From Psammoneis japonica (Eukaryota), in assembly GCA_008632985.1 (NCBI GenBank), contig QPGO01000282.1, positions 38,377 to 74,369 on the forward strand: a DNA stretch of 35,993 nucleotides, given 5' to 3'. This document shows positions 7,365 to 32,491 of the stretch, in pieces (the stretch's first letter is position 1; every line of letters starts with the position of its first letter). The position numbers and the translations under genes were made by a program. Below the pieces are notes generated by a model. It was given only the letters and a program-made list of their open reading frames with translations, was not told where the DNA came from and did not search any database.

Positions 7365-7382
7365 GGACGATGCAGGCCATGC

Positions 7383-8610: not shown

Positions 8611-8842
8611 TGTTCCAACGCTTTCACTTCGACTCATTGTGTGGCTAAATGTTTCGATTCAATGATTAAAATTTCAAAAGATGCCGACGAAACATCAAAA
8701 GTGCCTGAAAATTTCAAAAGATGCCGGAGTTCAACGCACACACCTGTTCCAACGCTTTCACTGCGACTCATTGTATGGCTAAATATTTCGATTCAAGAAG
8801 ATGCCGACAAAACATCAAAAGAGTGCCTGAATAGAAAATTTC
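8611..8842 (+). repeat. Direct repeat, ~100 bp x2 (8611-8715 and 8745-8842)
   Basis: Both copies begin tgttccaacgctttcact and contain agatgccgac.aaacatcaaaag. Confidence 0.9.
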
Positions 8843-9170
8843 GAAATCCGCCGTACACACGCTGTATGTCTGTCTGTCTGTCTGTCTGTACATAAACGTA
8901 AACAGAAAGCACAAAAACCCAAACGCCAAAGCAGTGAAAGGATGCGAGAATGCGATGCGGGATGCGGCGGAAGCGGAAGGAGCTTGTGCGTGAAGTAGAG
9001 TATCCAAGAGCAAAAAAGGGTTGATGCGAGTGTGCTAGTAGTCTAATAGCAACCTCCTTATTACCTTTAGAACTACACCAGTGATCTTGTTGACCCATAT
9101 CGATTGTTCTTCATTCTGATTGGGTTCAAATTTGTGAAAAAATCCCGCATCCAACGAAAGATACAGAAGA

Positions 9171-10281
9171 ATGAGCGTCAGCCACGAAGCGAAAACGAGC
9201 ATGAATGACGAGGACGAGAAAGCGGTCCTTGCTATTTTGAAAGCTGCCAAAAAGTCCGATATTATGGATCTCGATACGTGTACCAAGATGGATAAAAAGA
9301 CGGGTCGAGTGACGGAACTCAGTCTGGGTCGATGCAAAGAACTGTCGGAGATTCCTGCCGAGTTGGAGACATTGACGGAGCTCGAGCATCTCAACCTTCG
9401 AATGTGCACCAGCCTGAAAACGTTACCACCGCAATTATCAAAGCTGGCAAAACTGAAACGATTGGATCTTCCGGGATGTAAAAATCTACAAACGATACCC
9501 AGTGAGGTGGGACAGCTGTCGGAACTTGTAGAGTTGGATCTGGGTGGTTGCGCGAAACTCGAAGAACTTCCACGCGAGATTGGAATGCTGCATAGACTGG
9601 AGAAACTGAACTTGTCGCGTTGTCGAAGCTTGACAGGACTACCCTCAGAAATCGGGGCTCTTGAGAATTTAAAAGAGCTTGATCTAGGAGGCTGCACCAA
9701 GGTCAAGTCGTTACCACCCGAGATTGGCCAACTGAGCAAGCTAACGAGCCTTTCTCTTTGAGTTGCACACAACTCACCTTGTTGCCTCTAGAGATTGGTC
9801 AATTGTCGTCTCTCTCTACCCTTCAGTTGGATGGGTGCGAACAACTGAAAATGCTTCCCAGCAGCATTTCCAACCTGTCGGAACTCAAATCCCTGAGTCT
9901 CAATCTTTGTACGCAACTCAAAGCTCTTCCGACGTATATTGGCGAGCTATCCAAGTTAGCGATACTGGACCTTCGAGGGTATGAATGAAATCGATACCAA
10001 GGAGATTGACACTGACAATTCAAGAAGCTTGACCTCATTACTGTCAGTTGATCGGTCCTCCGAAGTGGAGGGTGGGGTCAGTTGGCAGAATGTAGGAATA
10101 TCTGGACCTTCGAGGGTGCATCGAATTGAAATCGATACCCAAGGAGATTGGACAACTGACCAATCTCAAGAAGCTTGACCTCAGTTACTGTCAGTTGATC
10201 CGGTCTCTACCAAAAGAAGTGGAGGGGCTCAAAGGTTGCAATATTATAATTGTTGGCACCTACATGTCTCCAGATGCATGA
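9171..10281 (+). CDS. Intracellular leucine-rich repeat protein (24-aa LxxLxLxxCxxLxxLPxEIGxL repeats), frameshifted in this assembly
   Basis: Regular LRRs in ORFs 9171-9761 and 9758-9988, joined by a 1-nt shift at ~9760. A deletion-riddled stretch follows (~9980-10100), then clean 'LDLRGCIELKSIPKEIGQLTNLKKLDLSYCQLIRSLPKEV...PDA' ending at TGA 10279-10281. Confidence 0.85.
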
Positions 10282-11840
10282 ATAGTAGTGTTTACATATC
10301 TCTAGTAGAGTTTCCTCGCAAAGCAACAACGCTTGGAGGCTTGCCATGAGGCTAAAGTGTGAATACACGTAACTACTGTATCCGGATTCTCCGCGCGTTA
10401 GCCCAACATGCCATACGGGATCACTATATATATAATATTTTGGACATCATTTGAATTTTCGAGAAGAGTTGCCGACAAACTAAATGTGGGTTCTTTGCAT
10501 CCGCACCAACTTCTCGAGTAAAATACGAAAAGCAGCATCTCACGTTTGGAGTTTTCGATTTCTTTGGAGCTCACACTGTATGTCCGCTATGCTTGGTGTA
10601 GGTTCGTTGTTTTAAAGACAACGTTAATCACAACATGGAAACTATCTAAACCAAGTAGCGATTCGCTACAGCACTTAGCATCGGGCCGAGCAAGCGAAAA
10701 CCGACCCTGGCGTGTGCTTGTGCAGAAGGCGAAGGTGCAAGCAGCAATTGATGAGAAACGTGCGGCGCGAAAGAGGAAGAGCACGACAGAAAGGGTAAAA
10801 AAATCCAAGAAAGAGCTCAAAGAAGAGAGGGAATCATACATATAGTGTCTAAGCAAGATAGAGATGTCTTTTAGCTGCGGCAACAACGCCATGGTGTGTT
10901 TTCATGCATCATGCATCGTGGATCTTCGAGATCGGGGCGCGCGCTCGTTTTGCAGTGACGTTTTGAGGTTTTGTAGTGACGCAGTACTTAGGGCTTATAC
11001 AAGTCCAGTTTTTCAAATGACGTTGTTCATATCAAAATATATATGGATATAAATTTAAAATTAATAAAAATAATGAGTTAGCCGGGGTAGGGCTAGTTGG
11101 TCGCGCACGTTTGGGTTCGATGCAGCCGTGCAACTAGCCATACCCTGCAGGAAGAGCTGTTGGTGGCGCGCGAGCAGAAGCAACAAAGCAAAGAACACGG
11201 CGTGGGTCAAAACGTTGTAAAATGACGCAACAACAAGCAGCGAGAAGAAACCCAACTTGACCCATGAATACAGCGCATACATATTGTCCAACCACTTCAA
11301 TAGTATCTCGTATTCCCAGCTTGTAGATGAGGGGACGGCGTTCGCGTTTCTCGCCATGGTGTTGTTGTGCGTTATCGTGTTGTTTGCGCGCGAAGACCAC
11401 GGGATCTATTTATCCGATAATAACTCTGTTTTGGTAATAGTAGATGTTTTACTGTATTCAATCTGAGAATATTTTGAGAAGCGCTTCGGGGCGACCCTGT
11501 TCGCACCGTTAAATAGAAATTTTTTTTATCCAGATTCCAGAGTTCTTTCGGGGTGTTCTGTCAGACTTTTGAATTGGTATATACATATATTAGAGGCCTT
11601 AGCAAAATCAATGATATGTAATAGCCTCAGAGACCAACATAAATTTATGTTCCATGTAGACCACGTAGATTGTGTACCGGCGGAAAATCCACGGCATGTC
11701 AATCACTCAGTAGTAATTCTACGTATATCCTACTTACACCTCACACACGTACACACACCTACACAGTCTAATAACCGCGCACACGTGCGCGAGAAAAAAG
11801 TCCAACACACACAACACACCCGCCCCCCGCCGCAACAACC

Positions 11841-12527
11841 ATGGCGACTGACACTCCTGCTGACGCTGCTCCTGAAGAGTCGTCATGGGTATTGAAATCC
11901 TTGAAAGAGAATCCTCCGCCAGACGCGTTAGCAGTAGGATGGATCTTACGACAGAGCCGATCTATGCCGGGAACGTACTACTACTACCATCAAGAAACGG
12001 GATACAGCCAGTGGGACCCTCCGCTAGATCAGCCAAAAGAAGAAGAACATGCTCCTCAAGAGATTGCAGTAAAATCAGTTGATAAAGAAACAAAGAAAAG
12101 ACAAGAAACTCGCGTTGCAGCGCAAGAAGAACAGCCTCCGCCGAAGCGCTCCAAACCGACAAAGCATCAGCCGAAAGAAGTTCGCGTCTTGCACTTGCTC
12201 AAGAAACACAGGGGCTCTCGTCGACCCGCGTCATGGCGAAATCCCAAAATTACCAGCACCAAAGAAGAGTCAACGGCGGAATTAGAAGAGTTGGCTGCCA
12301 TTTTAAAGGAATCACAAACGCCTGAAGAAACAAGAGCGACCTTTGAAGAGCTTGCCCGAACCGAGTCGGATTGCAGCTCGGCGAAACGGGGTGGCGATTT
12401 GGGATTTTTTGGTAGAAAGAAAATGCAACCCGCCTTTGAGAAGGCAGCGTTTGATTTGGAAATTGGGGAGTTGAGTGGTATTGTGGAAACATCGAGTGGG
12501 GTGCATATTTTGCTGAGAATTGGATAA
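11841..12527 (+). CDS. PIN1: Pin1/Ess1-type parvulin peptidyl-prolyl cis-trans isomerase with N-terminal WW domain
   Basis: WW domain 'GWILRQSRSMPGTYYYYHQETGYSQWDPP'. Phosphate-binding loop 'HLLKKHRGSRRPASWR'. PPIase motifs 'ESDCSSAKRGGDLGFFGRKKMQPAFEKAAF' and 'VETSSGVHILLR'. Intact 228-aa ORF with an accATGG start context. Confidence 0.97.
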   Translation: MATDTPADAAPEESSWVLKSLKENPPPDALAVGWILRQSRSMPGTYYYYHQETGYSQWDPPLDQPKEEEHAPQEIAVKSVDKETKKRQETRVAAQEEQPPPKRSKPTKHQPKEVRVLHLLKKHRGSRRPASWRNPKITSTKEESTAELEELAAILKESQTPEETRATFEELARTESDCSSAKRGGDLGFFGRKKMQPAFEKAAFDLEIGELSGIVETSSGVHILLRIG

Positions 12528-13764
12528 GCGAAGAAGACAGTCGTTCTTGTTGAATAAGAAAGTATGACAGGAACGCTACTCTAGAGGTCCATGGCGTGGG
12601 GAAAGCCCATTGTGTGGCTGTGCACACATACAGTATCTATAATTTTGTTCCCATAAACAAGTAGTGAAATACTTTTCATCGGAGGTTTCTAGCTCGTGGA
12701 TTAGTCACCTCAAGGACATTGTCTACTCTAGCAAGCTCTACGAGGTATGCTTTGAAGCATTCTCGAAGTAGTCAGTCTCAACACAACGCAGCCGCTCTGC
12801 GCTCCTTCGCATTGTCGACGGGTGGTCCAGCAGTGTATCATCATGAGAGAACTGGACGCGATGCAGAGGATATGTTGTCTTGGGCTGTCCGAAAGAGCCA
12901 ACTACCTCATTTACCTACTACAGATCAGAGGATATTGTTGGATTGGCCGGAAAATGCAGATAGATGATTTAATGCCTGACGTAGCCCTTGTCGTCCACCA
13001 TAAACTGAAGGATTGCCGAGGCTTCATCATGGTCAATAGCCCCAACCCCTTCATGAGATCGTCGACTTCGTTGTTGCGGGAGCAGCAATGACGTGGGCAT
13101 TGTCAACTTTGAATGTAACTTTTCCTTGGTTATTCGCCAGCGTCGTCACCGAGACCATCTTCCGAATCATCGTCACTGTGATCCCGCAACGTTCGATTCA
13201 GATGGAACTCCCCAGCCGCAATCACGACACAGCCTCGGTATCGTCTTGATGATTCACCATAGTCGTTACTTTGTTACGTGATTATGTATGCTTCACCAAG
13301 ACAAATCATCGAGCAGATACAGCAGTGATGATTCCAGTTCCTTCCTCCTTCGTTTCAATTTGCCCATCGCACACCAAATTTGAAGCAAAAAGTTGCTTTC
13401 CTATCCGCAAACCTCATCGTTGCCTCGATACAAAATGAGTTTATTTCGACAGCATCCTCTTGAGACGCTGTGCTGTTGTCCAATCATCAACTCAATGGAG
13501 AATATGGATGTTTATCCGCGGCATCATGGCTCATGGCGATCATCCAACAACTCGGAGGTGGTACGGTATGAAATCGTACGCATTTTCCCGTAGCATCCAA
13601 TAAACAATATTAAGATACAGTTATAAGATAAAAAATTCGAACCGTTTTCATAGGAGAAAAATTCAATGAACTTATTTCAAGGCTTTGGAGTTACATACGA
13701 AAATCGCCAGCCGTCATTTCTTACATTAATTTTTAACCATTAATTTTTTATATTCATTAGACGC

Positions 13765-13836
13765 TACGGGGAATTCAACGCAATTCTCGGTATGGTATGC
13801 CACGGGGAATTCTACGTAATTCTCAGTATGGTATGT
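13765..13836 (+). repeat. 36-bp tandem repeat x2 at the left edge of the TpA-free block
   Basis: tacggggaattcaacgcaattctcggtatggtatgc (13765-13800) followed by cacggggaattctacgtaattctcagtatggtatgt (13801-13836). Confidence 0.9.
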
Positions 13837-14680
13837 GACGGCATGATGTCGTCATCATGATGTCATGACGCCATGCAGAAGTAAGTGCACCAGGGCCCTA
13901 ACTAACTGTGCCGTACAGCCAAAATTCTACCCAAGAAGTGTCATGCACGCATTGTGTTGAAATGCTTTTTCAGTTCTTCTCTTTGCATTGCCCTTTTGTT
14001 GCTCTGGCTCATGTTCATTTTGTCCCAAGCAACATTTTGTCATTGCAGAGCAACAGTTTTTGCAGTGCACAGCAACGGCCAAAAAACGGGCAGCTTCATT
14101 TTCGTCAGAGCAACATTTTCCATTTGGCGCAAAAACATTTTCATCTCTCCGCTTTTGCTGTCCCTCCTTGTTTCTCCCCATGTGATTTTTGCATGGGTTC
14201 GATGCCCATGTCAATGATTTGCTGTGATCCTGTCTGTCTTCACGTGTTTTTCTGTGTGTCGTGTCCTTTGCGGGGGATCAGCTCAACACAGAAAGCTCCC
14301 AGCTCAAAGATCCGTTGATGAATTTGTCAAATTGGCTCACAAAAATTGATGCTCTTGTTCACCCTGCATGATGGTGCACCTGATCAGGAGTTCAACCATC
14401 CACTGAATCCCCGCCGGTTGTTTTTCAGCACAGTGGTCTCCCCCCTGTTTGGCACCTCCTTCCTCCGCAGCACACCATGGTGAGCTCTGCTCCTCTCCAT
14501 CATCTTCGTTGACATGGGTCTGTGACAACAGAGTCTGGTTGTCCTTGGAAGAAGGGTGCAAGCTGCAGATGGTCTGTGAGCGATGGAAAAAAAAACTGTT
14601 GCTTCCAAAAGCACAACTTTTCCCTCCACCCATCCATCTGATTTGGAGCGGCTTGATGGTTTTGTTGTGGCAACTTTCAG

Positions 14681-16900
14681 ATGTTCATCAACCCCATGTC
14701 TGCTCATGCAATCAAGCACTGCAGAAGCAGGGTCCACTCTGGCAAGTCCTTGGAGGATCTCAACACTGAGCTTGAAGCAGACAAGAAGCCTTGGAGACTT
14801 TGTGCTTCTCCCAGGTTTGCTTTCTCTGTTTTCCCAGCTGCTGAGGAGAATTGTGAGATGTGGTGCAAGAAGTTGTGGTGCTTTTTTTCAATGGTTGGCA
14901 ATTGTGACTCCATGGTCATGCTGTTGCCTCACCCACCAGCTGGCTCAAAGTGCAAAACTGTTGCGCACCGCCCCCTTCAGCATTTTGCGGTGCATTGCTG
15001 CCAGGCCTTCAATCAACCATTGAAGTCTTCCTTTGTTGACTCTGTTGCCTCTGACCCTGTTTTGGACATCCACGGCAACAACATCAGATGTGAAGGTTGC
15101 ATCAACAATGCCAAGGGATTTGCCAACATTTGTGCCACCTTGACAAATTCTTGGTGGCAAGCTTGGGACAAATGGCAGCTGCAGAGAGCAGCGTCAAGAC
15201 TGTTTGCAGTTGCTTCATGTGCAAGGGTTGCATTTTGCACCAGTTCATGCCACAATGTTGGAGCACAGGTCTTCCCACAATGACCACACAGCACAAAGAC
15301 CTTGTGAGGTGGGTTGAGCAACAAAACACAGCCAGCGGCTGTCAACCAAAGTCAAAGTCGCCTTTGTTTCCTTCAGACCTTTGGGACATTCATGCCTGCA
15401 TGATTTCCAAAACTGCACCTGGTGGGCTCAATGATTTTGCCAGGTGCACTCAGGTGTTGGCTGCCATCCATGTTGCAGCCAGGTTTGATGGTTGCCAAGA
15501 CATTCATGTGGTGGAAGACTTTGGTTTGTTGCACAAAGACTGGATGATTGAAGAAGCTCCCTTTTTCATTGCCAACATTGCTTTGAGAGTGAAGGAAAAG
15601 ACAGATGGTGACTGGCTTCACTGCATGATCAAGTTCAAGGATGAGACTCCCCAGCTCTGTTTCCTCAGGCATTTGTTGGTGCACGTTCATGTGCCAGGTG
15701 CAAAGGAAGGCTGCATCTTTCCCTCTTCTGCAGACTTGGCAGCACTGTCCATGGCGCTGGCGCGTTGACTCTCAGTCTGAATGCAATCCTGTGTGCCCTG
15801 TTCCTGCCACGTGTGTGTCCATCTCTCGCTGGCTTGTGGAGAGACTTGAGGAAAACTGCAAAAGAGGTGACAAAGCTGATGTTGGCTGCCGCTCTCTCAG
15901 GCACACCTTTTGCACGTTTTCAGTTCTTGGAGGGTGGGAGGAGAGGACATTGAACAAAAGGAGTGCGTGCCACAGGGATTGGGAAACCTCTGAGAAGCAC
16001 ATGAAGAATTGCACAAGCGCTGCAGAGGACATGATGAAAGATCCTGTTCCAAGGAAAAGGAGCAAGATCTGGAAATTCCAAGATGTGAAAATTGAAAGAA
16101 GAGCACAAAGCAGGAGCAGGCTCAACAGCATGATGCCTCGCTCATGTTTCAAAGCACTTTGTTGAATGAGGTGCTTCTTGTGATGCCAGATGACCCAAAC
16201 TGCAAGAACCCCCGGCAACTTTTGCAAAAGAGCAGCTGCTCCATGACCTTGGCCAGTCACTCTTTGGATGAACAATTGCACAGCTCTTCTGCAGCAATTG
16301 GTTGTCTGACATGCACCCTGCTGTGTGGAGCTTCAAAACTTGGTGCACAGCATGGTTGAAAAATTGTCTCATCCAGTTTGTTCTTCAATGTGGGCTGCTC
16401 CATTTGCAGCCATGCTGGGCACAATTTCTCCACAGATTCCACTTGTTGGTCACTCTGTTGCTCCACCTCTTGCCAATTTTTTGCTGAGTCTCCAGCCCTC
16501 TTTTGTTCCCACCCAACTGTTTGCACATGTTGCCACCAACAACACAGACCGCTGTTTTTTTCTCTGTGACTTGGGGAGTGCTTGTGGGCTGGACAAGGAG
16601 AAGGTGGCCAAGTTCAAGAATCTTGGCTTCCACAAACAGGCCATGCAGCTTGAGGCTCTTGCAATGGACATTGTGCAGGTGGGGTCATCTAACCCAGCCA
16701 AGAGGCCACAAACTGTGGACACTGATTTGTTTGTCAGGGCGCACAAGATGGGAAGGAAGAAGCTGTTGTCTGATCCCAAAACCAGAAGCTGGCTCAGCCA
16801 CAACCATTTGAGATTTTTCAACTGTTTTGTTTGGTGCCACCACCTTTCCATTGAAAGCCTCATCGGATCGCACACCTGTGCCACAGGCAGCAAGTTTCAT
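14681..16900 (+). pseudogene. Crypton-type (CryptonS-like) tyrosine recombinase, inactivated
   Basis: N-terminal 'LWCFFSMVGNCDSMVMLLPHPP...PVLDIHGNNIRCEG' and 'GCILHQFMP..STGLP...SPLFPSDL'. Catalytic-domain motifs in order: 'AARFD' (R, 15481), 'VKEKTD' (K), 'LCFLRHLLV', 'GCIFP', 'GCRSLRHTF' (HxxR box), 'SACH...SEKHM' (H...Y box, Tyr position = CAC 15998-16000). Several frameshifts. Confidence 0.82.
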
Positions 16901-17240
16901 CATGACTCATGCAACGCCAGGTCTCAATCATCTGCACCACAATCTGTGTTGCTGGCCCAGATGCTGCAGTTTTTTCCTTGACCTTTGGCCAAAATCTGTG
17001 CTTTCCATTCAACCATCTTAGCCCTCAAATGCTGCACACATCATTTCTTTGGCACAGCGGATGAGCAGTTGTTGCTTTGATGCAGCCCCTTTTCCCACTG
17101 ACATTGTTGTTGGTGTTTTCGTGGCCGCCACACTGGCAGAGAAGAAAAGGGATGTGCAAGTGCAAAGTTTTCTTGAGATGGACATTGGTGACTCCATTGG
17201 CTCCCAGGTGAGCCATGGCAAGAACCATGGAAGGGCATTG

Positions 17241-17890
17241 GAAGACCATTCTTGTGTCAACTCAGCCACTTGTGGCTCTTAGATTGTGCAGGATTCAGCC
17301 ACGAATGCCCAGCTGTTGAACAATGGGAAGTGCTTTTGGAACAGTGCAGCTGCAAAGTTGCACTGTGATGGAATTGGGTGACTGCCTTGGGTCCAGGGGA
17401 AGTCAGCAAAAACCACCAGCGGGCAAGGGAAGAACATTCTTGTGCAGACGTGACCAGTTGTTGCTCTGAGATTGCAGAACTCAGAGCTGACAACCCTGGT
17501 TTTGAATGGCAGGAAGTGATTGTGCAGCAGGGCAGCTGCAAAGTTGAACATTGGCAGATCCATTGTGTTGCTGGGGAGTCAGCAAGAAGCATGGGCAGGC
17601 ATTGGAAGACCATTCTTGTGCCAACACAGCTGCGTGTCACTCTGAGATTGCAGGATTCACCCAAGACAACCTGGCTGTCAAACCATGGGATGTGAGTTTG
17701 GAGCTGTGCAAGTGCAAAGTTGTCTTTTGATGGACTTGGGTGACTGATCAGAGTCCCAGGGGAGCTGGCAACACAACCACCAATGGGTGCTGGAAGACCA
17801 TTTTTGTGCAACCACAGCTGCTTGTTGCTCTGAGATTGCAGGGTTCAGCACAGACAACCCAGCTGTTGAATGGTGGGACAACTTGCTTTT
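17241..17890. repeat. Four diverged tandem units of ~175-190 bp (probable relic of a repeat protein)
   Basis: The anchor gaaga(c/a)catt(c/t)ttgtg...ctct(g/t)agattg recurs at ~17241, 17430, 17605 and 17793. Confidence 0.85.
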
Positions 17891-18783
17891 GGAAAAGGGA
17901 AAGCAAAGAGTCAATTTGTGATGGATGTGGGCATCTCTGCTGAGTCTCCAGGGGGGGGGGGGGTGGCAACAAGCATGGAGGGAAGCTGAGTGACCATTGC
18001 GGCAACTGTCTCATTTTCTGAGTGACTCTGTCACATTGGTCCCTTGCAGAAAGTGCGAGCCAACAGCTTGCCAGTGACAGTCATGGGTCAAGGCATTGAA
18101 ATGACATGAAGGTGCCCACACAATTGCAGATGTGGACAATGAAAGGGAGACAGACAATGAGTGGGAGGCAGACATGAATGATCATTGGCAGAAAAGGCAA
18201 GAAAAATGTGCAACTCTGCACGGACGCATGAACTGCAGAAACAAACATCAACAAATGAAGATGACATTAAATTTGTGTGCCCAATTGTGGGAAAGCAACT
18301 GTTGCCTGTGAGCCCTTGTCATTGCAGTCATCATGGGAACTCTCTGTGCAGTCTTTGCCATGACAAACAAAGCCCACACAAACTTGCATCAATTCCATGT
18401 TTCTTGCACTTTTCAGGTGATCATTGAGGCTTTCCAGGTGCTCCGACGCTGACTCTGCAATGGAGAACTTGGGGTGAACTTCCTCTCCACCAGAGTGCAC
18501 GACAGAGAGGTGATGCACAAACAACATTTCTTTCTTGTCTCCCAGCAAGTCATCCTCAGAAATCTCCTCATTGTCACTTTTCAGAGTGCCACAAAGAACC
18601 CCCATTGGGTGCAGGAGCCTTTCCTCCACCACGAGGCCAAATCTGTCAACCCACAGACCCTTTTCATCAAAAAGGGTCTCATCAAATTTGCAACAACTGC
18701 TGCATCTCTGTTTGTCTCAACTGTCTGCTGAGAATTTTTGGCCAAACATGTTGCGCTGATTGACTCGAACAATTTGTCAACAT

Positions 18784-19203
18784 GCAGCATGCATGCAGAC
18801 AAAAGGTCATTTTGTCACGCCCTTTGTGACATTCAAAGGCTGCAACACGTCGCCGTGGTGCACCAACTCTTGTCAGCAGCTGTGTGTTGCACTCCTCCCC
18901 ATGCATCACGCGTCCATGCGGCTCTTTGCCAACGTGTGCTGACACTGCACGGTTTTGGCGGAACAGTGTGGGCACGTGCGAAGGAACACATCGACAGTGA
19001 TCAATGTTGCTGCAGACAACTCCCACTCAGGGTTTCGAACCCCTGGCCTCCTGCCCAATGGTCACACGATGAACCACTCCGCTGTGAATTCACAACGCAG
19101 CATGCATGCAGACAAAAGGTCATTTTGTCACGCCCTTTGTGACATTTAAAGGCTGCGACACGTCGCCGTGATGCGTTGGCTCTTGTCAGCAGCTGCACGT
19201 TGC
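18784..19203. repeat. Direct repeat, ~107 bp x2 (18784-18890 and 19097-19203)
   Basis: gcagcatgcatgcagacaaaaggtcattttgtcacgccctttgtgacatt is identical in both copies; the remainder differs by transitions. Confidence 0.92.
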
Positions 19204-22200
19204 AAACAACCCAATTGCAGTTTTCCAAGCACCCCAGATTTGCTTGCAACACTTCGTTCCAGAGGTGCTCACCAAAACTGCCTTTTGTGGAGACAAACAT
19301 GTTTGCAGCTGCAAGACTGAAATGTTCCAGCACAAAATTGGGCCCTTTGGAAAATGGCTTGTTGGCTTTTGCACCAAGGGTGACTTCCAGGTTGTCTGTC
19401 ACCCCTTTGAACCCTTCAAGAACCATCTTGCAGTGACGCCATTGAGGGGGGGAGTCTCTCACAGGACCCAAGCATTGCATGGTCAGCGAATTGTCAAAAG
19501 GCAGCCTGCAAACAATGGAGGAGTTGAAGGCCACATGTTTGGAGCAGTGCTCTGGAAATTCATGCAACCCAACAAACAGCTTTTCAAGAATGGCTTCAGG
19601 GTCATCTTCCAGCTCCTTCTTCATCTGGGCTTCCATTTGAAGGATTTTCCCACCTGGCACGCTTCTTCAATGGCAAATTTTGTTCACAGTTGCCCAGCAG
19701 AACAGAGAGAACACAGTGCTGCAACACAATTGTTGCCTCGCTGTGTGGTTGGAGTCAGTCTTGAACCAGTTTGGGCTGGGATGAATTGAGTTGTCACTCG
19801 CCTTCTTTTGGAGAGATGCAGTGCATGCCAAGGCACTGACTCAGCGCCCCAAAACAAAGTCATTGTTGCAACAAAAAGTGGCAGTCAAACAGCTGAAAAA
19901 AATGAAGGCAGTGGACAACAAAACTTGCGAGTTTTTGCCTTCCAGCAACTGCCAAGAGGTGGGCAAGTGGGGGCACTGGAGGGCCATGCTCAGCTTCCAG
20001 CTGCACATGCCCAACTCCTTGAACCTGAGTGAGGAGCTTGCTCCTCGTGTGCTGGACAAGGACTTGTTAAAAAAAAAAAAAGCTGCTTGAGAGGACAGCC
20101 TGTTTTCCATTTCCATGATTGAGAAATGAGAGATGAGACCCAAGCACTGCCACTTGAAGATTGCTGGTGTGTCTGCTCTTTTTGGGAGACACTCATTGCT
20201 GGTGGAAGGAGAGGATCCAGTCCACAGTTGACACAGCAGGATGATGTGTTCCAGTTTGAGAAATTCATGCAGTCAAGTCATTGCAAGGAATCATGGAAAG
20301 GAAAGTTCAGGTTCATCCCTTCTTCTTTCCTGACTCCCTTCCACAGATTCAGGAGGCTGTTCATCAACAATGATCTTCAGCTTGTTCAGGCAAATGCAAA
20401 CAAGGAGTGCAATTTTTTCAAGGGCACAACCAACCATGGCAGAGAGACCTGCATCATGCAACAGGACAAGTCATGGAGGACAAGCACCCATGGTCATGTG
20501 GACCACATCCCCACATGTGATGCCAGTTGCCACATTGACCATTCAAGCATCAGCGCAAATCAACCATGACAGCTTGTGCATGTTGACAAAGCACCTGCTT
20601 GCATTTTCAGGGTTGCAGGGGAGGATGTGGCCAGAGAGGTGAAGCATGGTGGGGAGAAATTCACAGAGATTTGCAAGAATGCAGAGATCAAGGAGATTCA
20701 GAACCTTGGTTTGAGGTGCCAGATGACCAAGAACCGCGGCTGATGGAGCAACACAAGGCAAGAGATTTGGAGAGGCAAGTCAAGAAACAAGGAAAGCTGA
20801 AATTTGATGAAATGTTGAGTGCTGCTGTGGCGATGCAGCATGTGGTGGGAACAACCATGAAGGAGGGAAAGGAGATGCAGTGAAAATGTGGGGTCAACAA
20901 AGAAGTCAAGTGGTCAGCCCATGCAAAAGTTGGAGATTCTGGCAAGGGAGACAAGTGGGTTGAACCAGCAGAGAGAGTGAAGAGGAGCAGGCACAACTTG
21001 CAAACAGCGGCAAGCAGAGGAGGAGGAGGAGGAGGAGGCTTTGGTTGATTCAACTGAAAAGCTTGCAGCAAGCGACAATGCAGAAGAGGTGGCAGAAGCA
21101 GTTGAAAAGGTGGCTGGGTCCAAAAAAAGTGAGCCAATGCAAAAGCAGAACAGCCAGAAGTCCAGCCACAAAAGTGCAGCCAACAGAAGGAAAAGAGCAA
21201 GAAGAAATTGAACAAAGACAATGACCGAATCACTCAAACAGATTTGTGATCCTGCAAATTGGTTGTGAGCAAAACCCAAGAGAGGAAAAAAGAAACCGGC
21301 GGTCTGTGCTGCAAAGCTTGGAGCAAAGCAACCATGTCAGCCAATGGAAGCATGTTTGTGGTGCTGACAAATTGAGTCCCAAAGGGCCCAGATGCTTGTG
21401 CCATGGCAACAAAGTCAGTTAGAAGGGGGGTGCCACCAGGAACAAAGCCACCTCCACACTCAAACTTGAGCATGAAATCAAAGGAGATCTGGGCAGTGGC
21501 AGAGCAAACTGAATCCATGCAGAGTTGCAGTCTTCCTTGAAAGTGAGGCACAAGCCCCCACAATCTGCGTCCAACATGCCCACCCTGGGAAAAGAAGCAA
21601 GAGCTTTAAACAAAACTTGAGTGGCTTGTTGGGGCAGGCACAAGCTGCCAAGAATCAGCTCAATCTTTTTGCAGAGGGGGTCCACAAGTGACAAATTTTG
21701 AAACCCTCTTAAACACCTCCACAGAGAACATTTCTGTGAAGGGATCACTGGGGGGGATCACTGGGGGGGCATGAACAGGAGATTCAAACACCAACAGCAG
21801 CTGCTCTTGAGGGTCTCTCTGCTGCTGTCCTCCTCTGAGGCATTCTGTCTGCCACAAACAAGTTGGTGGAGGCCAGGTGCAGGACCAAATCTCAAAGGAT
21901 GCACAGAACAACAATTGGAAGAGTCTCCAGAGGTGAAGGCACAATTGACAAGCAGGGTCATCAAACACAGCTGTGGTGGATGGTGCTTCTTGTCCTCAGA
22001 GTGTGGTGCAACAAGTCTGTTTTGGAGCAAAGTGTGCACTGGGGCCACAACTCAACATTTTCTTCATGACACATGTCACATCTGCTTTGCATTGTTGATC
22101 AGCACTGCTTCCACAGCTGCACATTCAAAGGAAATTTTGTAAAAAACAACCACATGCTGCCATGGAAACTTGCGCAAAAATGCGCTGGGGCAGCCCAGGC

Positions 22201-22470
22201 ATTGGAGCTCTGTGTGTGGCCATCTCAACACATGAAAAAGTTGTTGCAAATGTCTTGCAGCATGAGAGCTTTTGTTGCCAGTTCAAAAGAGTTCTCTTTG
22301 TGCAAGACAAGAAAAAAATTCCAATTTGTTGCATCACAGGCTCCCAGTCACCAGTCAACAGCCGCACACAAACAAGCAGAGAAGATTTTGTTGGCACTTT
22401 TTTGCTCATGAGAAGCCAAACCAAAAACTTCACTCCAAAGACAAGAGCGGCCCTTCACATTCTGGGGCAA

Positions 22471-25128
22471 TTGAGAAAGAAAGAGCAGCTGCTTGTTTTG
22501 ATGTGCTCCAGTGTTGGGGAGCTTGTTTTTGTGTCAAAGCATTTGCAAATGCACAAAGACACTGTTCTCTGCTCAACAAAGCCGTTGCACATCAGTGCAA
22601 AAATCACAGTCCATGCAGCAGCTGCCACTCCCAACTGGGAGGTCTGCAAGTGGCACAGAAGAAGGAAAGAGAAGAACTCCCATGGATTGCAACACACTGC
22701 TGTGCTGCACCAGGCCAGCCAGCAAAGCTCAAAAAATTTGTGCCGTGTGTTTTTTTTTTTGTTCCTGGCACAAAACCAAAAAATTCTGCACAGAATTTGT
22801 GCAGCCACCATGGCAAATTTGCATCGCATGAACCGTCATTGTCACCATTTTTCACAAGGCAAGTCACTCAGGATGTTGTTGGCATTTGTCCACAGCGCCA
22901 CTGCACACTGGCACAATTTTGACAAGTGTCGCTCCGTGTGCAAGAATGAGGATTTTAACTCCTTTGGTGTGTGAGCATGCTGCTGTTGTTGCCGTTCCGG
23001 TGTGTTTTGTCAAGTTTGTTGTCACTTCCCTTCTCTCATCCCTTGACCTGTGCATGGCTCATTTCACAATGAATGTGGATGAAAGGCGCTGATGTGTGGG
23101 AGACACCTTTGGAGTGTTTGAGGCAAGCTCTGGACGTTGCGGCTCATGGCTCATGTGTTTTCAATGGATGAAGGGCCCCACACTTTACTTTGTCAAACAT
23201 GTTGATGGTGCAAGCAGCAGTGGATTTCATTCAGATTGTTCTTTTTGCTCTTGTCCTTCCCAAGCTGCAACAACTGGAAAAGAAACATGCCGGGCAATGG
23301 CTGCCATTTGGTGTCCTTGATGTTCTGTGGCAGAGCACTGTGTTGAGCACCGAGCATCCTTGCCACATTGTCGCCATGGGCAAGTGCCATCATGGATCCA
23401 GCGAGATCACACCATCCATGTCACCCCCCATTGAGCCACTGCTTCCCAATGACGGAATGTCCATGGCAAGCCTTGGGGTGCTGACATTGTTCAATGTGCA
23501 ACATTTGCAAACCATCAAGTTCCAAGCATTGCAGCTCTTCATGCAATGTCTGTGTTTCTCTTTTGACCAGCGCATGTGTCATGTCACTGGGTGCTGGCTT
23601 TTGCAAATGACAACATCTCTGTGCATTTCACTCAGTCATTTTTTCTTTTTCTTGCGGTCGCTGTCCTTGGGTTGGCAACTGCATTGGCAAATGCAATCAC
23701 CAAATCTTTTTTCTCTTTTTAAAATGTCTGCTGTCAGAACTGACCATTCTGGTCAGGGCCTTCTTGTGTGTTCGAGTGTTGCTGAATGCTCTTGAACAAG
23801 AAATGTCAGAAAGAAACGGAGGGATTGGGGCCATTCTGAACACCACCACCTTGGACGTCATCAACTCTGGCACATCATCTTGTCCATGCCACTCATGGTG
23901 TTGTGTGGGGTTTTGCTGTGTGCTTTCTCACTGCTGCTGTGGTGGAATTGGCCACTGCTTTTTCAAATTTGCTTGCAGCTCTGATGGTCAGTCTGCATGG
24001 TGGTCTGCCTTGTGGTTTTGCTGGCAAGAACACTGTCACTTGATTTCAAGAAGATTGGTGGCAGAAAGATCACCCCTGTGGGACCTGTTCAGACAAAGCC
24101 AAAGAGTCTTTTTGCTGTCTTTTCATGTGTCTTTTTTAAGACTGGGCTCAGCTCTTTGCTTGTTTTGTCATCTTTCAGACCTCCTTTTGACTTCAATCCT
24201 GCTGTGTCAACTTGTGCCAAGTTTTCTGAACCACCACACTTCACATTGGTGTCAAGAGAGCAAAAGCTCTGAAAGAGACCTTTCTTGTTTCTTCTTCCAT
24301 GTTGTTTTGGATTGGTGGTGAGTGGGCATGTGGCGCTGAATGAACATCAAAAGCATGAAGCAACAAACCTCTTGGTGGGAGCAAACAGGAGACACCTTTT
24401 TGTGGGACTGGGGTGGAGGGCAGATGTTTTGCACCAGGCCAGCATGCAATTTGTGCAAGGCACGCAGAAATCACACAGAAATCTGTCTGTGCACCAGCTA
24501 AAATGTGTTGCGGTCCACGGGAGTGGGTGGCAGCTGCACTCTCAAAAGAACGAGCGGTGCTCTTCATCTTGCCCCTCATGTCATTGATGAGGAAGGTCAC
24601 TCAAGTCAGCCAAAATTGACGCTGTGGAGCAGTTGAAAAAGAAAGAGCAGCTGCTTGTTTTGACATGCTCCAGTGGTGGGGAGCTTGTTTTTTGTCAAAG
24701 CATTTGCAAGTGCGCGAAGACACTGTTCTCCACTGAGCAAAGCAACTCCACATTGGTGCAAAAATCATGGTCCATGTGGTGACAGCCACCTCCTCTCAAA
24801 AGAAAGAGTGGCTCTCATGACCTCACCACTCATGTTTTTGATGAGGGAGGTCACTTGAGTTGGCTGCAGTTGATGCTCTTGTCAGGCATTTGAGAAAAAA
24901 AGCAGCTGCTTGTTTTGACATGCTCCAGTGGTGAGGAGCTTGTTTTTGGGTCAAAACATTTGCAAACACACAAAGACAATGTTCTCTGCTCAACAAAGCA
25001 GTTGCACATTGGCGCGACAACAACGGTCCATGCAGTGACAGCCACACTCTCAAAAGAAAGAGCGCGGCTCTTCACCTCAGCCCTCATGTTGCTGATGAGG
25101 AAGGTCGCTCAAGCTGGCCAAAGTTGAC
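22471..25128. repeat. ~260-bp repeat family: partial copy 22471-22620, partial copy ~24511-24620, full copies ~24633-24864 and ~24890-25128
   Basis: Shared blocks agcagctgcttgttttga, gagcttgttttt, catttgcaa, ctctcaaaagaa and tgatgagg.aggtc. Confidence 0.88.
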
Positions 25129-26643
25129 AGTGCCCCCCCCCCCCCCCCGAGCATGTTGCTGCCAACACACAGCAGCAAGCAGTGGTTGCACAATGTGGTG
25201 GCTCTTTTCAAAAGATGCAGCTGTTCAGAGAGGCAGCTCAAGCCAGGCCAGAGATGCTGCATGGGTGCACATCAGCTCTGTCTGTCAGTGGAAAAAGATT
25301 TTGGCAGAGGCCCAATCTTTGCAAATGTTGTTCGCACTTTCATCTTTGGCAAGGCCACAGCTTGAGAACCTGGAAGAGGCACCCAGAGAAACAGACATGC
25401 TGGTTGGCGCCCACCACCGTGTGGGTGCTTTGTTGGATGTTGTGCAGCCGCAGACCACCGTGCTCACTCCAAGAAGAAGCAAAGCTGGCTTTGAGCTGCT
25501 TGCCACAATGAGAGCTCCTGGCCAGTGTGACATCCTGCTGCCACCCACTTTGGGCCAAAAGAAGAGTTTTGATGGCACCGACATGAGGTGTGCCGATGGC
25601 ACGCATGGCCCAGCTTTGGACCTGCAGGGACAAATGCCCTCCATTTCTGATGCTGAGCACAAAAACATGAAAAGGCAATCTGCAAAAATGCCAGTGCTTG
25701 CCTTCCTGCTGGTCGACCATGAGAGTGCTCCCGCTGGCTTGCCAACCCAAGATCCTGCCGCGCGCGCTGGCATGTCCTTCGCGCATGTGGCAGCACCGCT
25801 CCACCTGGCAAAAACAGCCACAAGGCAACAAGGGCTGAAATCTTAAGCCAGGTTGATGCCAGCACAAAAAAAAACAAAAGTGCGCACATCTGAATGAGCA
25901 TAGCTGCACTGGGGGGCCGGAGACAATTTGAAAGGCTGAAGCTCGCCTGGCAAGGGGGGCCAGGGGCCAAGGAGCAGAGTCGCGCGGCCCGCAGCTGTGC
26001 CAACAAGGGCCGGCACAATGCCAGAGAAAGAATGCTCCAAAGTTTGGTTGAAGTGCAGCATGCAAATGTGAGTCCTTTCAGCACACGTGCAAGACTGCAA
26101 CAAAGAAACAGTGCCAGCCTGAAGCTGTGCTCTTTTGACGATTGATGGCTGCTGGTTTGGCTGGACCGCGAATGTGAGAAACCCCGCACCTGCAATGATG
26201 TGCTGGCCCGACTGCTGCTGTGAACCTGGGTTGGCAGTTTTCCACTGGGCCCCAATTTTCTTTGCCCAGCACTGCTTCTTCCTCTCTCAACTCGACAGCA
26301 TTGTGCTGCGCACCCTCACAACAAGCAGCCGTTCACATTGTGCGTGACTCAGTCATCACGGGCGCGAGTTTCGGTTGCCAACGCGAACATCAAAAAATAC
26401 AGCATCTTGTTCCATAACTATTTATGCCCCTAAACACTCGACAGTTCAAGACACAAGTGCAATTAACCACAAGATAGATTACTAAATAGGACAATGCCTT
26501 TTCGACAGTATAATACGTCTTGTCCACGAATGTCTTTAAGTATTCTCCAGAGAACGGATGAGGGGGAAAAAAGAATCGATACTTTCGCATTCTCGTTTTG
26601 CCTCACACAAAATTAATCGGTTTATCTTTCGACAACGGTTACC

Positions 26644-29202
26644 ATGACGATTCCTGCCCGTACGGGAGTAGTTCTCCTTTTTGGTGTCATTGCTTCTCAA
26701 GGGAGTAATGCGCAAAATAATATGGTAAGTGTTCTTTTGTTTGAACGCTACCGACATTTGTGGTCTACCGGTATCCACGTTCTCTCACTCGCAACCCTGG
26801 AAATTGTGTCTCACATGTTTTATATCATTTCGTTCTTGCGCCATTTCTTTTAGGGTTTTCAAGATGGTAAACGGCATTTACAAGTAAGTTGAGATATGCC
26901 TTTTCTCGATGCCATTTTGTGGCTGGCTCGGTGTCATTCCTTGTTTTTGATGGGCGACGCCGGATAGTTTGAAATCCTCCTTTTTCCGTGAAACAGTTCT
27001 CATCTCTGCCGTTGTACTATGATTATCTTTTGTCGCTCCATAGCAAATCCAAATTGATCCAGCTCCTGTAAGTGTCAATAAGACAGTTCCTGGTGTTTTT
27101 TTCATTCGAGATGTGAGAACTTGTTGCTGTCGTTTCTCATGAGAGTTCTAAACACCGTTTGTGCGGTCCTTGATTATTTTGCAGTCGGGAGCTTGCTGCG
27201 ACTTTGAAACTTGCTCAATCACGACCGAGCATGAATGTCTGCGCGGGATGCCATTACCGCCTGATCGCAATCGACAACTGCCCTCCCAAGCGGAATGGAA
27301 AGGGCCTGGCTCCACTTGCGAAACGGACTGCAAAGGAGCTTGCTGCCCGGAACCAGGATCCGATAAGGATTGTTTCAAGGGAACTAAAACTGAATGCGAT
27401 GCAAATGGGGGTGATTTTACGAATTATGGCATAACGTGTAAGAACGCGAATTGCCCAACCTTGTCACCCACGACTTCTCCTACGGAGAGTCCTACAATGG
27501 CACCAACAACCCCGTCTCCTACTATGGCTCCCACGACCCCTTCTCCTACCCCAGATCCTACCCTGCCGCCAACAACCTCTGATCAGAGCCCAGGCGCATG
27601 CTGCACCTTGTTTGATGGATGCAAGTTCATTTCGCAGGAGACTTGCGTTTTGGGTGGTGGTACGTTTGTTGGTCCAAATGCCAAGTGCAAGGACAGCAAG
27701 TGCCCTACCAAGGGAGCTTGCTGCAAGGAAGACGGCTGTGAGGTCACCTTCAAGAAAAAGTGCACCAACCATCAGGGCGACTTCAAGGGATTTGGTGTGA
27801 AGTGTGAACTTGGTTTGTGTCCCACCAAACCGCCGACACCGGCTCCGACGACTCAAGCTCCCACACAGAAACCTACAGTTGTTCCGCCTCCAACTGGAGC
27901 ATGCTGCAATGTTGAGAAGGACACCTGTGAGCAGACCACGGAAGAAGATTGTGACACTGGTGTATTTCTCGGACTTGGCGTCAAGTGCAAGCCAGGCATT
28001 TGCCCCACCAGGACATCCCCCGGAGCCTGCTGCCTCGCCCGTGGAGAGTGCCGGTTCTGGTCTCAAAAGACGTGCGCTAGAAATGGTTCGTTCTTTTTGG
28101 GTCCTGGTACATCCTGCAAAAATGTCGTTTGCCCTATCAAGACTCCGAGCCCAACCCCCTCACCTCCGTTGAAATTGACGGGTGCTTGTTGTTTCGAGAA
28201 TGGATTATGTCGAAATCTCAGGCCTGGAAATTGCAGGAAAAAGTATGGCAAGTTCTTACCCGATAAAGAATGTGATGACTCTGTATGCGCCGCAGAGACT
28301 CCAAGCCCTACACCCTCTCCCCGGAAGAAACCACTTGGCGCTTGTTGTTACGAGAACGGTATTTGTCGCGACCTCAGGGCGGGTGTGTGCAAGAAGAGGA
28401 AAGGAAAGTTCTCGCCCAATACAAACTGTTACAATATCGTCTGCCCCGTTGCAACTCTTGGGCCCGCTACTACACAAAGCCCCACGGTTCCCTCAAAACC
28501 TACTCTTCGTCCGACGAAACCTATCGGCGCATGTTGTATTGACAATGAACTTTGTCACAACCTTAGGCCGGGTGTATGCGAGAAAAGGAATGGGAAGTTC
28601 ATGGGCATTGGGACAGTTTGCCTGCCCTACAAGAAGTGCCCAATCTCTGAGAAAAAGCCAGGAGCTTGCTGTGTACCAGATAAAGGATGTATCGAGGGAG
28701 TAGATGAAACCAACTGCAGTTTTGTCGATGGAGAATACAATGGTGACGGCAGTACATGTACAGAAGCTACTTGTAGCGCTACTCCGGGCGCGTGCTGTTT
28801 ACCAGGAGTTTGTCAGACCCTTCAAGGCATGAAATGCAAGAAAAAGGGAGGGAGTTTATTGGCGCAGGCACAGTATGTGGTGTGGAGACCTGTCCTGCGG
28901 CATATGGGGCCTGTTGTTTGATAAGTGGCTCGTGTTCCGTGGTGAGCCCAAAGGGCTGTGATCGTAAAGGCGGGAAGTTCGTCGGATTCGATACCGTGTG
29001 CGGACTAAATACCTGCCCTGTCCTCATAAAGCGTGGTGCCTGCTGCTGGATGAATGGCAAGTGCAAGTTTTTGAAAGAGATGAGATGCAAAAAGAGAGGA
29101 GGCAAGTTTCAAGGGAATGGTGTCAGGTGTGAACCGACTACTTGTCCGGTAGATCCCGACTACAAATTTTTGCCTGTGTACAAATCTTTGCCTCTGGATT
29201 AG
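26644..29202 (+). CDS. Secreted cysteine-rich protein, ~717 aa, with 13 'GACC' six-Cys modules and Pro/Thr-rich linkers; 4 exons
   Basis: Exons 26644-26724 (signal-peptide-like MTIPARTGVVLLFGVIASQGSNA), 26854-26883 (GFQDGKRHLQ), 27044-27067 (QIQIDPAP) and 27185-29202. All three introns are GTAAGT...YAG and phase 0. One missing G at ~28850-28852 joins the 586-aa and 136-aa ORFs. Confidence 0.88.
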
Positions 29203-29457
29203 AGTGGCTAGCATCACTCTCCGGGAAACGTGGAACCTTGTTATTGTGTAATTTGGGGCAACGCTACAGGGAGTTCTCATCTCGTGTTGATCGCTGGCTT
29301 TTCAAGATGGCATGAATTGGTCTGACAAAAGATGTATTACAAATGTCGCCATTAAAGTTGTCTTTGACGTTTTGATTCGTTTTTGAAATCAAACGGAGTG
29401 AGTCGTCCTCAGTCGGCATGCGAAGACAGATTACGGAAGGAGGACACTCTGCAGGTG

Positions 29458-30849
29458 ATTGTTTAGTTAACCATTCTGCATAGACATCTCTAGATGGAGT
29501 GTTAGTAATACATAGAGCCCGTTGTATGAATCGCGTGAATATAGACCGAAAAAGTAGTGTAGCGCTCAGCATATCATCCCGCTCCACTATTCGGCAACTG
29601 ACATGGCCAGATTAGTCTGTAACACTCGTTTGTATTCCCTCTCTTCGCCCATTCCACAGTGGTCTATGCCATCATATGGTTTGACTCTTGGCCTTGAACC
29701 TGCGCTCACATCTCGCGTAAACCTTGCCGGTAGCTTCATACTATCACTGATTCAAGCTGTTGTCTTCGTGGCAAAGCAAAGAGCGAGAGCAAATCCTGGC
29801 TTTCATGCAGGAGTGAGCAATATCTATGCGTTTCAGGGCGGGTCAACGCTACAGACGAAGAAAGAGACGTATACGCAACTGTAGCTACACTGATGAAACT
29901 AAATTCCTAATAAAACAACCTCATCATATACCGGTAGTGCATACAAGCTTTTGCTCACTGCTCGGTTCGGAGAAAATCTAAGATGTATCTTACTCACGCT
30001 CTCCGACAATTGCCCCCCCTCCCTGCTGTGACGAAGCTTGTTGCTCGGTCTTCTTTGCGACCCAGGTGGGGACTTTATCGCTGGTGCTGCGCTGGAATAC
30101 AAGTCCCCGTACCGGTGCCTCATTTTTGGTGAGAGAATTATATGTTGAGATATATTGTTTAGTTAGCCATTCTTCATAGAGATCTCTATATGGGGTGTTA
30201 GTAATACATAGAGCCCGTTGTATGAATCGCGTGAATAGACCGAAAAAGTAGTGTAGCGCTCAGCATATCATCCCGCTCCACTATTCGGCAACTGACATGG
30301 CCAAATTAGTCTGTACCACTCGTGTATATTCCTTTTCTTCGCCCATTCCACAGTGGTATATGCCATCATATGGGTTGACTCTTGGCGCTACACCTTGAAC
30401 ATGCGCTCACAGCCCGCGTAAACCGTACCGGTAGCTTCATACTATCACTGATTCCAACTGTTCTCTTCGTAGCAAAGCAAAGAGCGAGAGCTATCCTGGC
30501 TTTCATGCAGGAGTGGACAATATCCATGCGTTTCAGGGTGGGTCAACACTACAGACGATCGCGAAGAAATAGACGTATATGCAACAGTAGCTATACTGAT
30601 GAAACCAAATTCCTAATAAAGTAACCTTACAATACGGCATTCAAGCTTTTGCTCACTGCTCGGTTCGGGGAAAATCTAAGATGTAAGATTCATCTTACTC
30701 ACGCTCTCCGACAATTGGTCCCCCTGCTGTGACGAAGCTTGTTGCTCGGTTTTCTTTGGGACCCAGGTGGGGACTTTATCGCTGGTGCTGCGCTGGAAAA
30801 CATATCCCAGTACCGGTGCCTCATTTGGTGGGAGAAGGTTGAGATATAT
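29458..30849. repeat. Head-to-tail tandem duplication, ~696 bp x2 (29458-30153 and 30154-30849), covering the 3' end and flank of the minus-strand gene
   Basis: Long near-identical blocks, e.g. gtgttagtaatacatagagcccgttgtatgaatcgcgtgaata and gacccaggtggggactttatcgctggtgctgcgctggaa, occur in both units. Confidence 0.95.
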
Positions 30850-32311: not shown

Positions 32312-32491
32312 TACATCCTTGACCGATGAAAGAAGACTCCAGCTTTCCCTCTTTGCTTTAGCATCGGAATCAACTTGGTTCTCTTCTTCCTTCTCTAACT
32401 ATACATCCTTGACCGATGAAAGAAGACTCCAGCTTTCCCTCTTTGCTTTAGCATCGGAATCAACTTGGTTCTCTTCTTCCTTCTCTAACTA
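32312..32491. repeat. Perfect 90-bp tandem repeat x2
   Basis: 32312-32401 is identical to 32402-32491. Confidence 0.97.

Follow-up and report, generated by a model that had tools for sequence, protein, structure and literature searches.

Probable targeted mutation of TpA to TpG and CpA in discrete blocks of nuclear DNA from a diatom-like alga

How does a 12,461-bp block of nuclear DNA come to hold 17 TpA dinucleotides where its base composition predicts 803? The question is raised by a 35,993-nt stretch of contig QPGO01000282.1 (the whole of which we call the window), where two blocks nearly free of TpA and a zone partly depleted of it adjoin DNA with ordinary genes. Our answer, to which we give a probability of roughly three in four, is that non-functional nuclear DNA of a diatom-like alga has been mutated in place from TpA to TpG or CpA by a process of the type described in Bigelowiella natans (Mettrop et al. 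2026, bioRxiv 10.64898/2026.01.13.699255). The zones of the window, none of which has a strand, are as follows, with dinucleotide usage given as observed/expected ratios (o/e):

1-3170: saturated TpA-free block 1, extending beyond the window start
3171-9000: partly mutated zone (TA o/e 0.21, CG 0.86, TG/CA 1.38), with YTAR contexts (Y, pyrimidine; R, purine) over-represented among the surviving sites
9001-13929: TpA-normal island with intact-looking genes (TA o/e 0.3-1.05 per 500 bp)
13930-26390: saturated TpA-free block 2, 12,461 bp, with mostly single-copy read depth
26391-35993: right flank, normal in TpA (TA o/e 0.64, CG 0.94), carrying exons of lipase and MFAP1 and a Cys-rich open reading frame (ORF) of 589 aa

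In block 2, TpA o/e falls to 0.02, and about 530 TpA would be expected even if the o/e were 0.66, as in the flanks. CpG is also reduced (185 against 754 expected, o/e 0.25), and CpA (1359 against 765, o/e 1.78) and TpG (1355 against 792, o/e 1.71) are in excess. Block 1 has one TpA against 189 expected, with CpG o/e of 0.21, and the two saturated blocks pooled give 0.24 for CpG, 1.76 for TG, and 1.77 for CA. These figures agree with an initial annotation of this DNA, whose counts by eye (about 17 TpA in 13930-26390 and one in 1-3170) prove exact, and which had also noted the reduced CpG, the surplus of TG/CA, and the prompt return to normal in the flanks. The edges of block 2 are abrupt: on the left, 13722-13928 contains 19 TpA, after which none occurs before 16690, and on the right the TpA at 25901 is followed by one at 26398 and then by a dense run. 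The two islands (9001-13929 and 26391-35993) are ordinary, with TpA o/e of 0.66 and CpG o/e of 0.96, and the mutated domains are thus confined to discrete regions adjoining normal DNA. GC content is unchanged (0.49 vs 0.48). TAA and TAG are nearly gone from block 2 (16 together vs 274 TGA), so that all six frames appear open and Tyr codons are missing automatically. Neither terminal repeats nor a target-site duplication were found at the edges of block 2, and a comparison of block 1 with block 2 revealed no similarity.

Two further features were seen near these edges. At the right edge (26290-26397), CpG recovers from about 26290-26340, 60-100 bp ahead of TpA (26398), so that the two signatures do not share an exact end base. 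Beyond the left edge, at a distance of about 95 bp, lies a 36-bp direct repeat containing TA (13766-13835, 1.9 copies).

The direction of change can be read from protein-coding remnants in the mutated zones, and from segments duplicated within them:

7376-8496, plus strand: reductase pseudogene (flavodoxin/FAD-binding), with PFOR/CPR-fusion-like relatives
8350-8379, plus strand: FAD motif PRAYSIASSP, here PHACSVASSP, with R to H at a CpG, Y to C at a TpA, and I to V across codons
23656-23709, plus strand: DHHC palmitoyltransferase remnant, a core match to ZDHHC9 (Pfam match extent 23611-24318)
24537-25106, no strand: 254-bp tandem repeat of 2.2 copies, 77% alike (82% once pyrimidine-purine, or YpR, steps are collapsed)

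An exhaustive HMMER search returned 19 relatives of the reductase, the best being 50-59% identical; word-indexed protein searches (of longer proteins only, for the reductase piece) returned none for either the reductase or the DHHC piece. The reductase relatives, 10 of which were checked for the FAD motif, have KPRAYSIAS, SSYYF, and MRYGL, in whose place the window has KPHACSVAS, SSHCF, and MICP, which supports the change from PRAYSIASSP to PHACSVASSP proposed in the initial annotation. At the seven Tyr columns of the alignment (those with Tyr in at least three relatives and a residue present in the window), the residues of the window are five Cys, one His, and one Ser, with no Tyr at all. The pseudogene also carries in-frame stops, internal tandem duplications, and a deletion of the ELGDALEI segment. 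In the DHHC core, the window reads CPWVGNCIGKCNHQIF and ZDHHC9 reads CPWVGNCVGKRNYRYF, the changes being Y to H at a TpA, and R to C and R to Q at CpG (NYRYF to NHQIF, KR to KC). It had been asked whether intact homologues already have Cys or His at such positions; the reductase relatives have Tyr there, and all seven environmental loci that encode relatives are normal (TA o/e 0.46-0.77, CG 0.77-1.10), so the family is not natively TpA-poor. One 240-aa database relative (P0002) has Cys at three of the six Tyr columns that it covers (PRACSIAS, LKCEIGD, NQCC) and, to judge from its residues, looks like another partly TpA-mutated copy in public data.

Furthermore, CA opposite TG is the commonest adjacent double mismatch between duplicated segments of the saturated block (30 of 1,151 aligned dinucleotides, the next-commonest occurring seven times), the corresponding counts being 9 of 881 for the partial zone and one of 821 for flank duplications. 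Such mismatches are what would be expected if a single ancestral YpR step had been resolved independently in each copy, and mutation has therefore acted in place, after local duplication. Collapsing YpR steps raises the identity of in-block repeats from 79.6 to 90.0%, from 85.6 to 91.0%, and from 76.7 to 82.3%, and leaves that of the flank control unchanged at 87.3%. There are also 20 differences of CG against TG or CA between repeat copies in the saturated block. The double-mismatch control was a tandem duplication of about 700 bp in TpA-normal DNA (29458-30849, 87% identity).

The two products are made equally on the two strands. The TG fraction in block 2 is 0.499, with no strand runs (z = 0.50) and an overdispersion (1.22) not above that of the flanks, which indicates that each site was struck independently on either strand. 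The process is also specific for TpA. AA and TT are not depleted in the saturated blocks (o/e 1.27 and 1.29 vs 1.15 and 1.10 in the flanks), and the decrease of AT and increase of GC are by-products of ATA to ACA and GTA to GCA. The pol-eta signature, WA to WG, targets both TA and AA; pol-eta-like errors, put forward in the initial annotation as a candidate mechanism, are excluded by the undepleted AA/TT.

Four-base context has a strong effect on survival, which we measured as TpA density in the partial zone relative to that in the flanks. Survival is lowest in ATAT (0.04), and rises through ATAC/GTAT (0.11), ATAA/TTAT (0.19), ATAG/CTAT (0.22), CTAC/GTAG (0.29), CTAG (0.31), GTAA/TTAC (0.35), and GTAC (0.38) to TTAA (0.74) and CTAA/TTAG (0.83), the heterogeneity over the 10 classes being highly significant (chi-square test: P = 4e-5). 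Grouped by class, RTAY sites were lost most readily (survival 0.14), mixed sites less so (0.26), and YTAR sites least (0.69). The survivors in the saturated blocks have the same character, 14 of the 18 being YTAR and nine of these TTAA.

The CpG and TpA signatures can be compared between zones if loss is expressed as the number of hits that each site received, taken as minus the logarithm of survival. From the partial zone to the saturated blocks this number rises from 0.11 to 1.40 for CpG, from 0.19 to 2.51 for CTAA/TTAG, and from 0.30 to 1.17 for TTAA, an increase of about 13-fold for both CpG and CTAA/TTAG. CpG loss thus scales with TpA loss in slow contexts, which implies that both processes were concurrent in the same domains, and, by these ratios, exposure in the saturated blocks was roughly 4-13 times that in the partial zone. 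The region-restricted, strand-symmetric conversion of TA to TG or CA with co-located decay of CpG to TG or CA, as outlined in the initial annotation, is thereby supported.

The process most probably runs as follows. Pseudogenes, tandem repeats, and unannotatable sequence are the targets; TpA is converted to TpG or CpA, one site per event and with either strand equally likely, until mainly poor contexts (TTAA and CTAA/TTAG) are left; and a slower decay of CpG to TpG or CpA, of the kind expected from cytosine methylation, proceeds in the same domains. The data show the depletion, its products and polarity, mutation in place following local duplication, strand symmetry, and the ranking of contexts; the agent is less certain. 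We tentatively propose, at somewhat below even odds, an enzyme that deaminates adenine at 5′-TA in double-stranded or transiently opened DNA, the resulting inosine pairing with C. In the tRNA target of TadA/ADAT enzymes, A34 always follows U33 (a 5′-UA context), which by analogy makes an enzyme of this type an attractive candidate.

Targeting would follow either silent or methylated chromatin or "non-self" units, silenced chromatin being suggested by the CpG loss, and the process may serve as a genome defense. That DNA units were targeted whole, from different starting times, is suggested by the great sharpness of the edges and by the presence of three discrete states. As a rough clock, the rate in the B. 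natans preprint, combined with the 3.3% TpA given there and with the assumption that about half of all sites are A/T, gives about 1e-5 per TpA per generation; by this analogy, a 97% loss of TpA would need on the order of 3e5 generations. Because CpG and CTAA/TTAG losses both rise about 13-fold between zones, one machinery with adenine- and cytosine-deaminating activities could cause both. A wider proposal, which we regard as possible but rather unlikely, is that a TpA-reading mutating defense, recognizing duplex DNA with a 4-bp footprint, is common to or has spread between Rhizaria and stramenopiles, and acts on any non-genic or "non-self" unit, viral or otherwise, to completion, with dead zones devoid of TpA as the result.

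Among the alternatives, the one that fares best retains the TpA process and dispenses with adenine deamination, relying instead on a mispairing modified base (N6-methyladenine, or hydroxymethyluracil for T) or on biased repair at TpA. A palindromic dinucleotide target whose loss depends on 4 bp of context, being fastest at ATAT and slowest at TTAA, would fit a DNA-modifying enzyme that reads the duplex. Also in favor are the equal and independent striking of both strands and the co-location with a signature of cytosine-methylation type. We nevertheless consider it improbable: the window offers no support for a modified base, the confinement of transitions to the A:T of TpA is what inosine:C pairing predicts, and the B. 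natans authors, likewise without proof, favor an ADAT2 homologue as the candidate deaminase for the same signature in the main text of their preprint (10.64898/2026.01.13.699255).

Native composition (foreign DNA that never had TpA) or selection purging TpA, as in nuclease avoidance, would account for sharp edges that look like insertion junctions, and TpA is mildly under-represented in most genomes. This is very unlikely, however, given that conserved Tyr positions read Cys or His and catalytic motifs are broken, that the same site is TG in one tandem copy and CA in the other, that the relatives are TpA-normal, and that the edges lack terminal repeats and a target-site duplication; the in-frame stops and deletions, moreover, mean that the reading frames are not under selection.

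A sequencing or assembly artefact, through systematic miscalling of a modified TA motif or through an error of polishing, is just as unlikely, even though the sequence was found in a single public read run (X1) that is possibly its source. X1, the only run found to contain the block, has 92% of the block's sampled words. The eight longest contig pieces rebuilt from its raw reads match 12500-27500 with no differences, and one of these pieces spans the left edge of block 2 (12874-14010); an assembler artefact, the check called for in the initial annotation, is excluded for block 2. The region, moreover, has decayed CpG, stop codons, deletions, and tandem copies that have diverged, none of which can arise from TA miscalls. 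Word depth is about 30-50 over most of block 2, equal to that of the flanks, and the block is therefore mostly single-copy. No RNA run is listed as carrying block 2.

The weakest alternative, ADAR-like A-to-I hyper-editing of retroelement RNA fixed through reverse transcription and integration, has in its favor the preference of ADARs for U before the edited A (as given in PMC10661471), but is scarcely credible in view of the equal, randomly interspersed TG and CA products, whose lack of strand-coordinated patches argues against editing of single-stranded RNA or cDNA, the resistance of TTAG/CTAA (a 3′ G is hence not favored), the undepleted AA, the lack of reverse transcriptase or retroelement domains in 237 ORF translations, the presence in the blocks of a cellular DHHC remnant and of tandem repeats that diverged in place, and a near-total depletion far above editing levels.

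Several points weigh against mutation in place of TpA by a process of the B. natans type. The evidence comes from one window, and that for polarity consists of an end state rather than of witnessed mutation events; without a close unmutated copy, there is no polarized spectrum at the nucleotide level. A codon-level polarized test against five environmental relatives was not significant (Fisher's exact test: P = 0.14), changes at TA or CG explaining 7 of 51 deviating codons vs 7 of 111 in leave-one-out controls; the pseudogene is too diverged for such a comparison. CA/TG mismatches fit an ancestral TA or an ancestral CG alike, and the pairs of duplicated segments partly reuse the same segments. 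Flank density serves as a proxy for the ancestral composition of the blocks. The product tetranucleotides, as a read-out of the strand that was hit, hint that an adenine with A on its 3′ side makes a poor target, although TG/CA derived from CpG confounds the result. The window may have been assembled from X1 itself, and the rebuilt contigs are hence not independent of that DNA preparation. Homology places the DNA among diatoms through one flank gene. Finally, the B. natans preprint's main text reports almost no C to T (1 of 231 mutations was not AT to GC) vs a CpG loss here of about one-tenth of the TpA loss, and the two cases may not share the same machinery.

The identity of the mutated DNA was sought in 237 ORF translations scanned with Pfam (150 window-wide and 87 from the two saturated blocks, partly overlapping). 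The only family match with E <= 0.001 inside the saturated blocks is the DHHC remnant, which lies under Pfam's own cut-off; other matches in the mutated zones are the flavodoxin/FAD-binding reductase of the partial zone and a weak 7tm_6 match at 6043-6516 (E = 0.0014), which also falls short of the cut-off. Among the 237 translations, no domain of a virus or transposon was found, and viral contigs yielded relatives for none of three block ORFs, hypermutated ORFs being poor queries in both searches. The initial annotation had spoken of transposable-element domains, a description that neither the DHHC remnant as sole family match nor the mostly single-copy depth supports; the blocks consist of tandem repeats and of decayed DNA, most of it unannotatable. 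It had also read two motifs as diagnostic of protein families:

15992-16003, plus strand: EKHM motif following SLRHTF...GG, read as a recombinase with its catalytic Tyr changed to His (a motif guess)
2503-2520, minus strand: VDCSHL motif, read as a G-protein-coupled receptor, present in the translation

Both motifs are there, but Pfam, NCBIfam, and the PDB lend no support to the families. Pfam has no match for 1975-2601 on the minus strand, and NCBIfam has no families for three ORFs. The PDB sequence search gave no matches at E <= 1 for ORF 15094-15765, chance matches only (best E = 0.42) for ORF 15629-16162, and none at E <= 0.001 for the reductase piece. The recombinase reading accordingly stays a motif guess.

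Two segments of block 2 depart from single-copy depth:

18512-19513, no strand: very high-copy repeat (word depth 17,857-31,920), in which two incomplete units are spaced by about 313 bp and TpA is absent
22520-23020, no strand: moderately repeated segment (depth 498), with related copies at 24625-24776 and 24885-25035

Within 18512-19513, a single variant letter is listed at 10% of depth or more (18773 T to C), and it lies outside TG/CA steps, for which reason the copies elsewhere appear to be TpA-free too. A tRNA or short interspersed nuclear element origin, considered on account of a T-loop-like motif near 19020, was rejected, since ARAGORN found no genes and Rfam gave no matches, even at E <= 1 over 18600-19400. 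Of 18 variant letters in X1, three (12721, 12732, and 26388) are places at which a divergent contig retains TA against TG or CA in the window, and two (12665 and 26382) are differences of CG against TG. These variants, at and outside the block edge, may represent traces of the TpA and CpG processes in an allele or a paralogue.

The flank genes are ordinary eukaryotic ones in the Pfam scan (LRR, Pin1-type WW plus rotamase, lipase, and MFAP1). Two of them lie in the island between the mutated domains:

9138-9985, plus strand: LRR gene, intact-looking, in the TpA-normal island
11775-12524, plus strand: Pin1-type WW plus rotamase gene, intact-looking, in the TpA-normal island

The best database match of the Pin1-type gene is 67% identical, and all eight legible names among the top 120 matches are diatoms (Fragilaria, Minutocellus, MMETSP "Pseud", Odontella, Cylindrotheca twice, a Bacillariaceae metagenome-assembled genome, and Cyclotella). 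There is no near-identical match among those listed, which include MMETSP, EukProt, and JGI sources. By this gene, B. natans is very unlikely as the source of the DNA, and a diatom or a near relative within the ochrophytes is the most likely one. In the right flank, the intact 589-aa ORF (27152-28918, plus strand) is without a Pfam family and has about ten Cys-rich modules (GACC...C...C...CP) with Pro/Thr-rich linkers; from its sequence it resembles a secreted or cell-surface repeat protein. Inside it, 27501-28000 falls to a TpA o/e of 0.30 and a CpG o/e of 0.50. Adjoining the lipase exon is a perfect (100%) tandem duplication with a 90-91-bp unit (32312-32492), evidently very recent.

The initial annotation knew of no description of such a process, a statement outdated by the 2026 preprint on B. 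natans, until which targeted A:T to G:C hypermutation of nuclear DNA was unknown. With a diatom-like case, its known range widens to another lineage, one that dominates ecologically and has genetically manipulable model species. The case reveals an end state, with saturation and resistant contexts, and a footprint (ATAT far above TTAA) against which candidate enzymes can be tested, and it shows that targets are not confined to viruses but can be cellular-type pseudogenes and tandem repeats. For annotation, TpA-free blocks mimic long ORFs in six frames, and false proteins that are Cys/His-rich and Tyr-free result.

How does the process compare with known ones? Repeat-induced point mutation (RIP) of ascomycete fungi changes CpA to TpA, raises TpA and AT, acts on duplicated DNA, and is often coupled to cytosine methylation. 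Region-targeted transitions, broken reading frames, and a dinucleotide signature are shared with it. The process here nevertheless runs in the opposite direction, as the initial annotation had recognized: TpA is erased and CpA enriched, whereas RIP raises TpA. There is likewise no AT enrichment (GC 0.49 vs 0.48), and block 2 is mostly single-copy except at 18512-19513 and 22520-23020, whereas RIP needs duplication. Decay by deamination of 5-methylcytosine would fit the CpG o/e of 0.24 and the gain of TG/CA, both restricted to the same blocks, but cannot remove TpA. Diatom transposons are methylated through DNMT5, according to Hoguin et al. (2023, PMC9998398), and by analogy such methylation would fit the CpG decay seen here.

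ADAR hyper-editing resembles the present process in its A to G outcome and in its preference for U/T before the target. The ADAR hot spot is 5′-UAG according to the review (PMC10661471), a preference not seen here, since TTAG/CTAA is the most resistant of the 10 classes (survival 0.83); in addition, AA is untouched, there are no strand-coordinated clusters, and the substrate is DNA in place. With TadA and ADAT2-ADAT3 the likeness is the 5′-UA context of the tRNA target, although the natural substrate there is a tRNA loop rather than duplex DNA, and the best context here is ATAT vs the ACG listed for TadA. ADAT2 is entered as "RNA, DNA?" in a table of the same review (PMC10661471).

The closest comparison is with B. 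natans, as reported in the main text of the preprint (10.64898/2026.01.13.699255). In two viral regions, one from an integrated nucleocytoplasmic large DNA virus and one from a virophage, mutation-accumulation lines gained 231 mutations, of which 230 were A to G or T to C, every one of these at TpA, at a rate of about 6e-7 per site per generation. The genome has 124 clusters of 1-kb windows depleted of TpA and enriched in CpA and TpG, and 324 coding sequences with a TpA frequency of 0.0018. Against this background, the host very probably differs, its Pin1-type flank gene not being that of a chlorarachniophyte; TpA hypermutation here thus probably represents a second lineage, and no report of a TpA-erasing signature in diatoms was found in the accessible literature, which misses most subscription journals. 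The targets here are without viral signal (again with hypermutated queries being poor ones), and among them are a pseudogene of cellular type, the DHHC remnant, and tandem repeats; the blocks are at saturation; CpG is co-depleted, a dinucleotide that the preprint's main text does not mention; and a 4-bp context hierarchy emerges, where that text reports the dinucleotide only. What the two have in common is more extensive. The B. natans experiments give the direction of the TpA signature an experimental precedent, and the outcome inferred here from the end state, TpA to TpG or CpA on both strands, is the same. Both are restricted to regions that contrast hugely with neighboring DNA, both act on largely unannotatable targets that can be single-copy, and both lead to a similarly low TpA frequency, 0.0014 in block 2 (17/12,461) vs 0.0018 in the depleted class of coding sequences.

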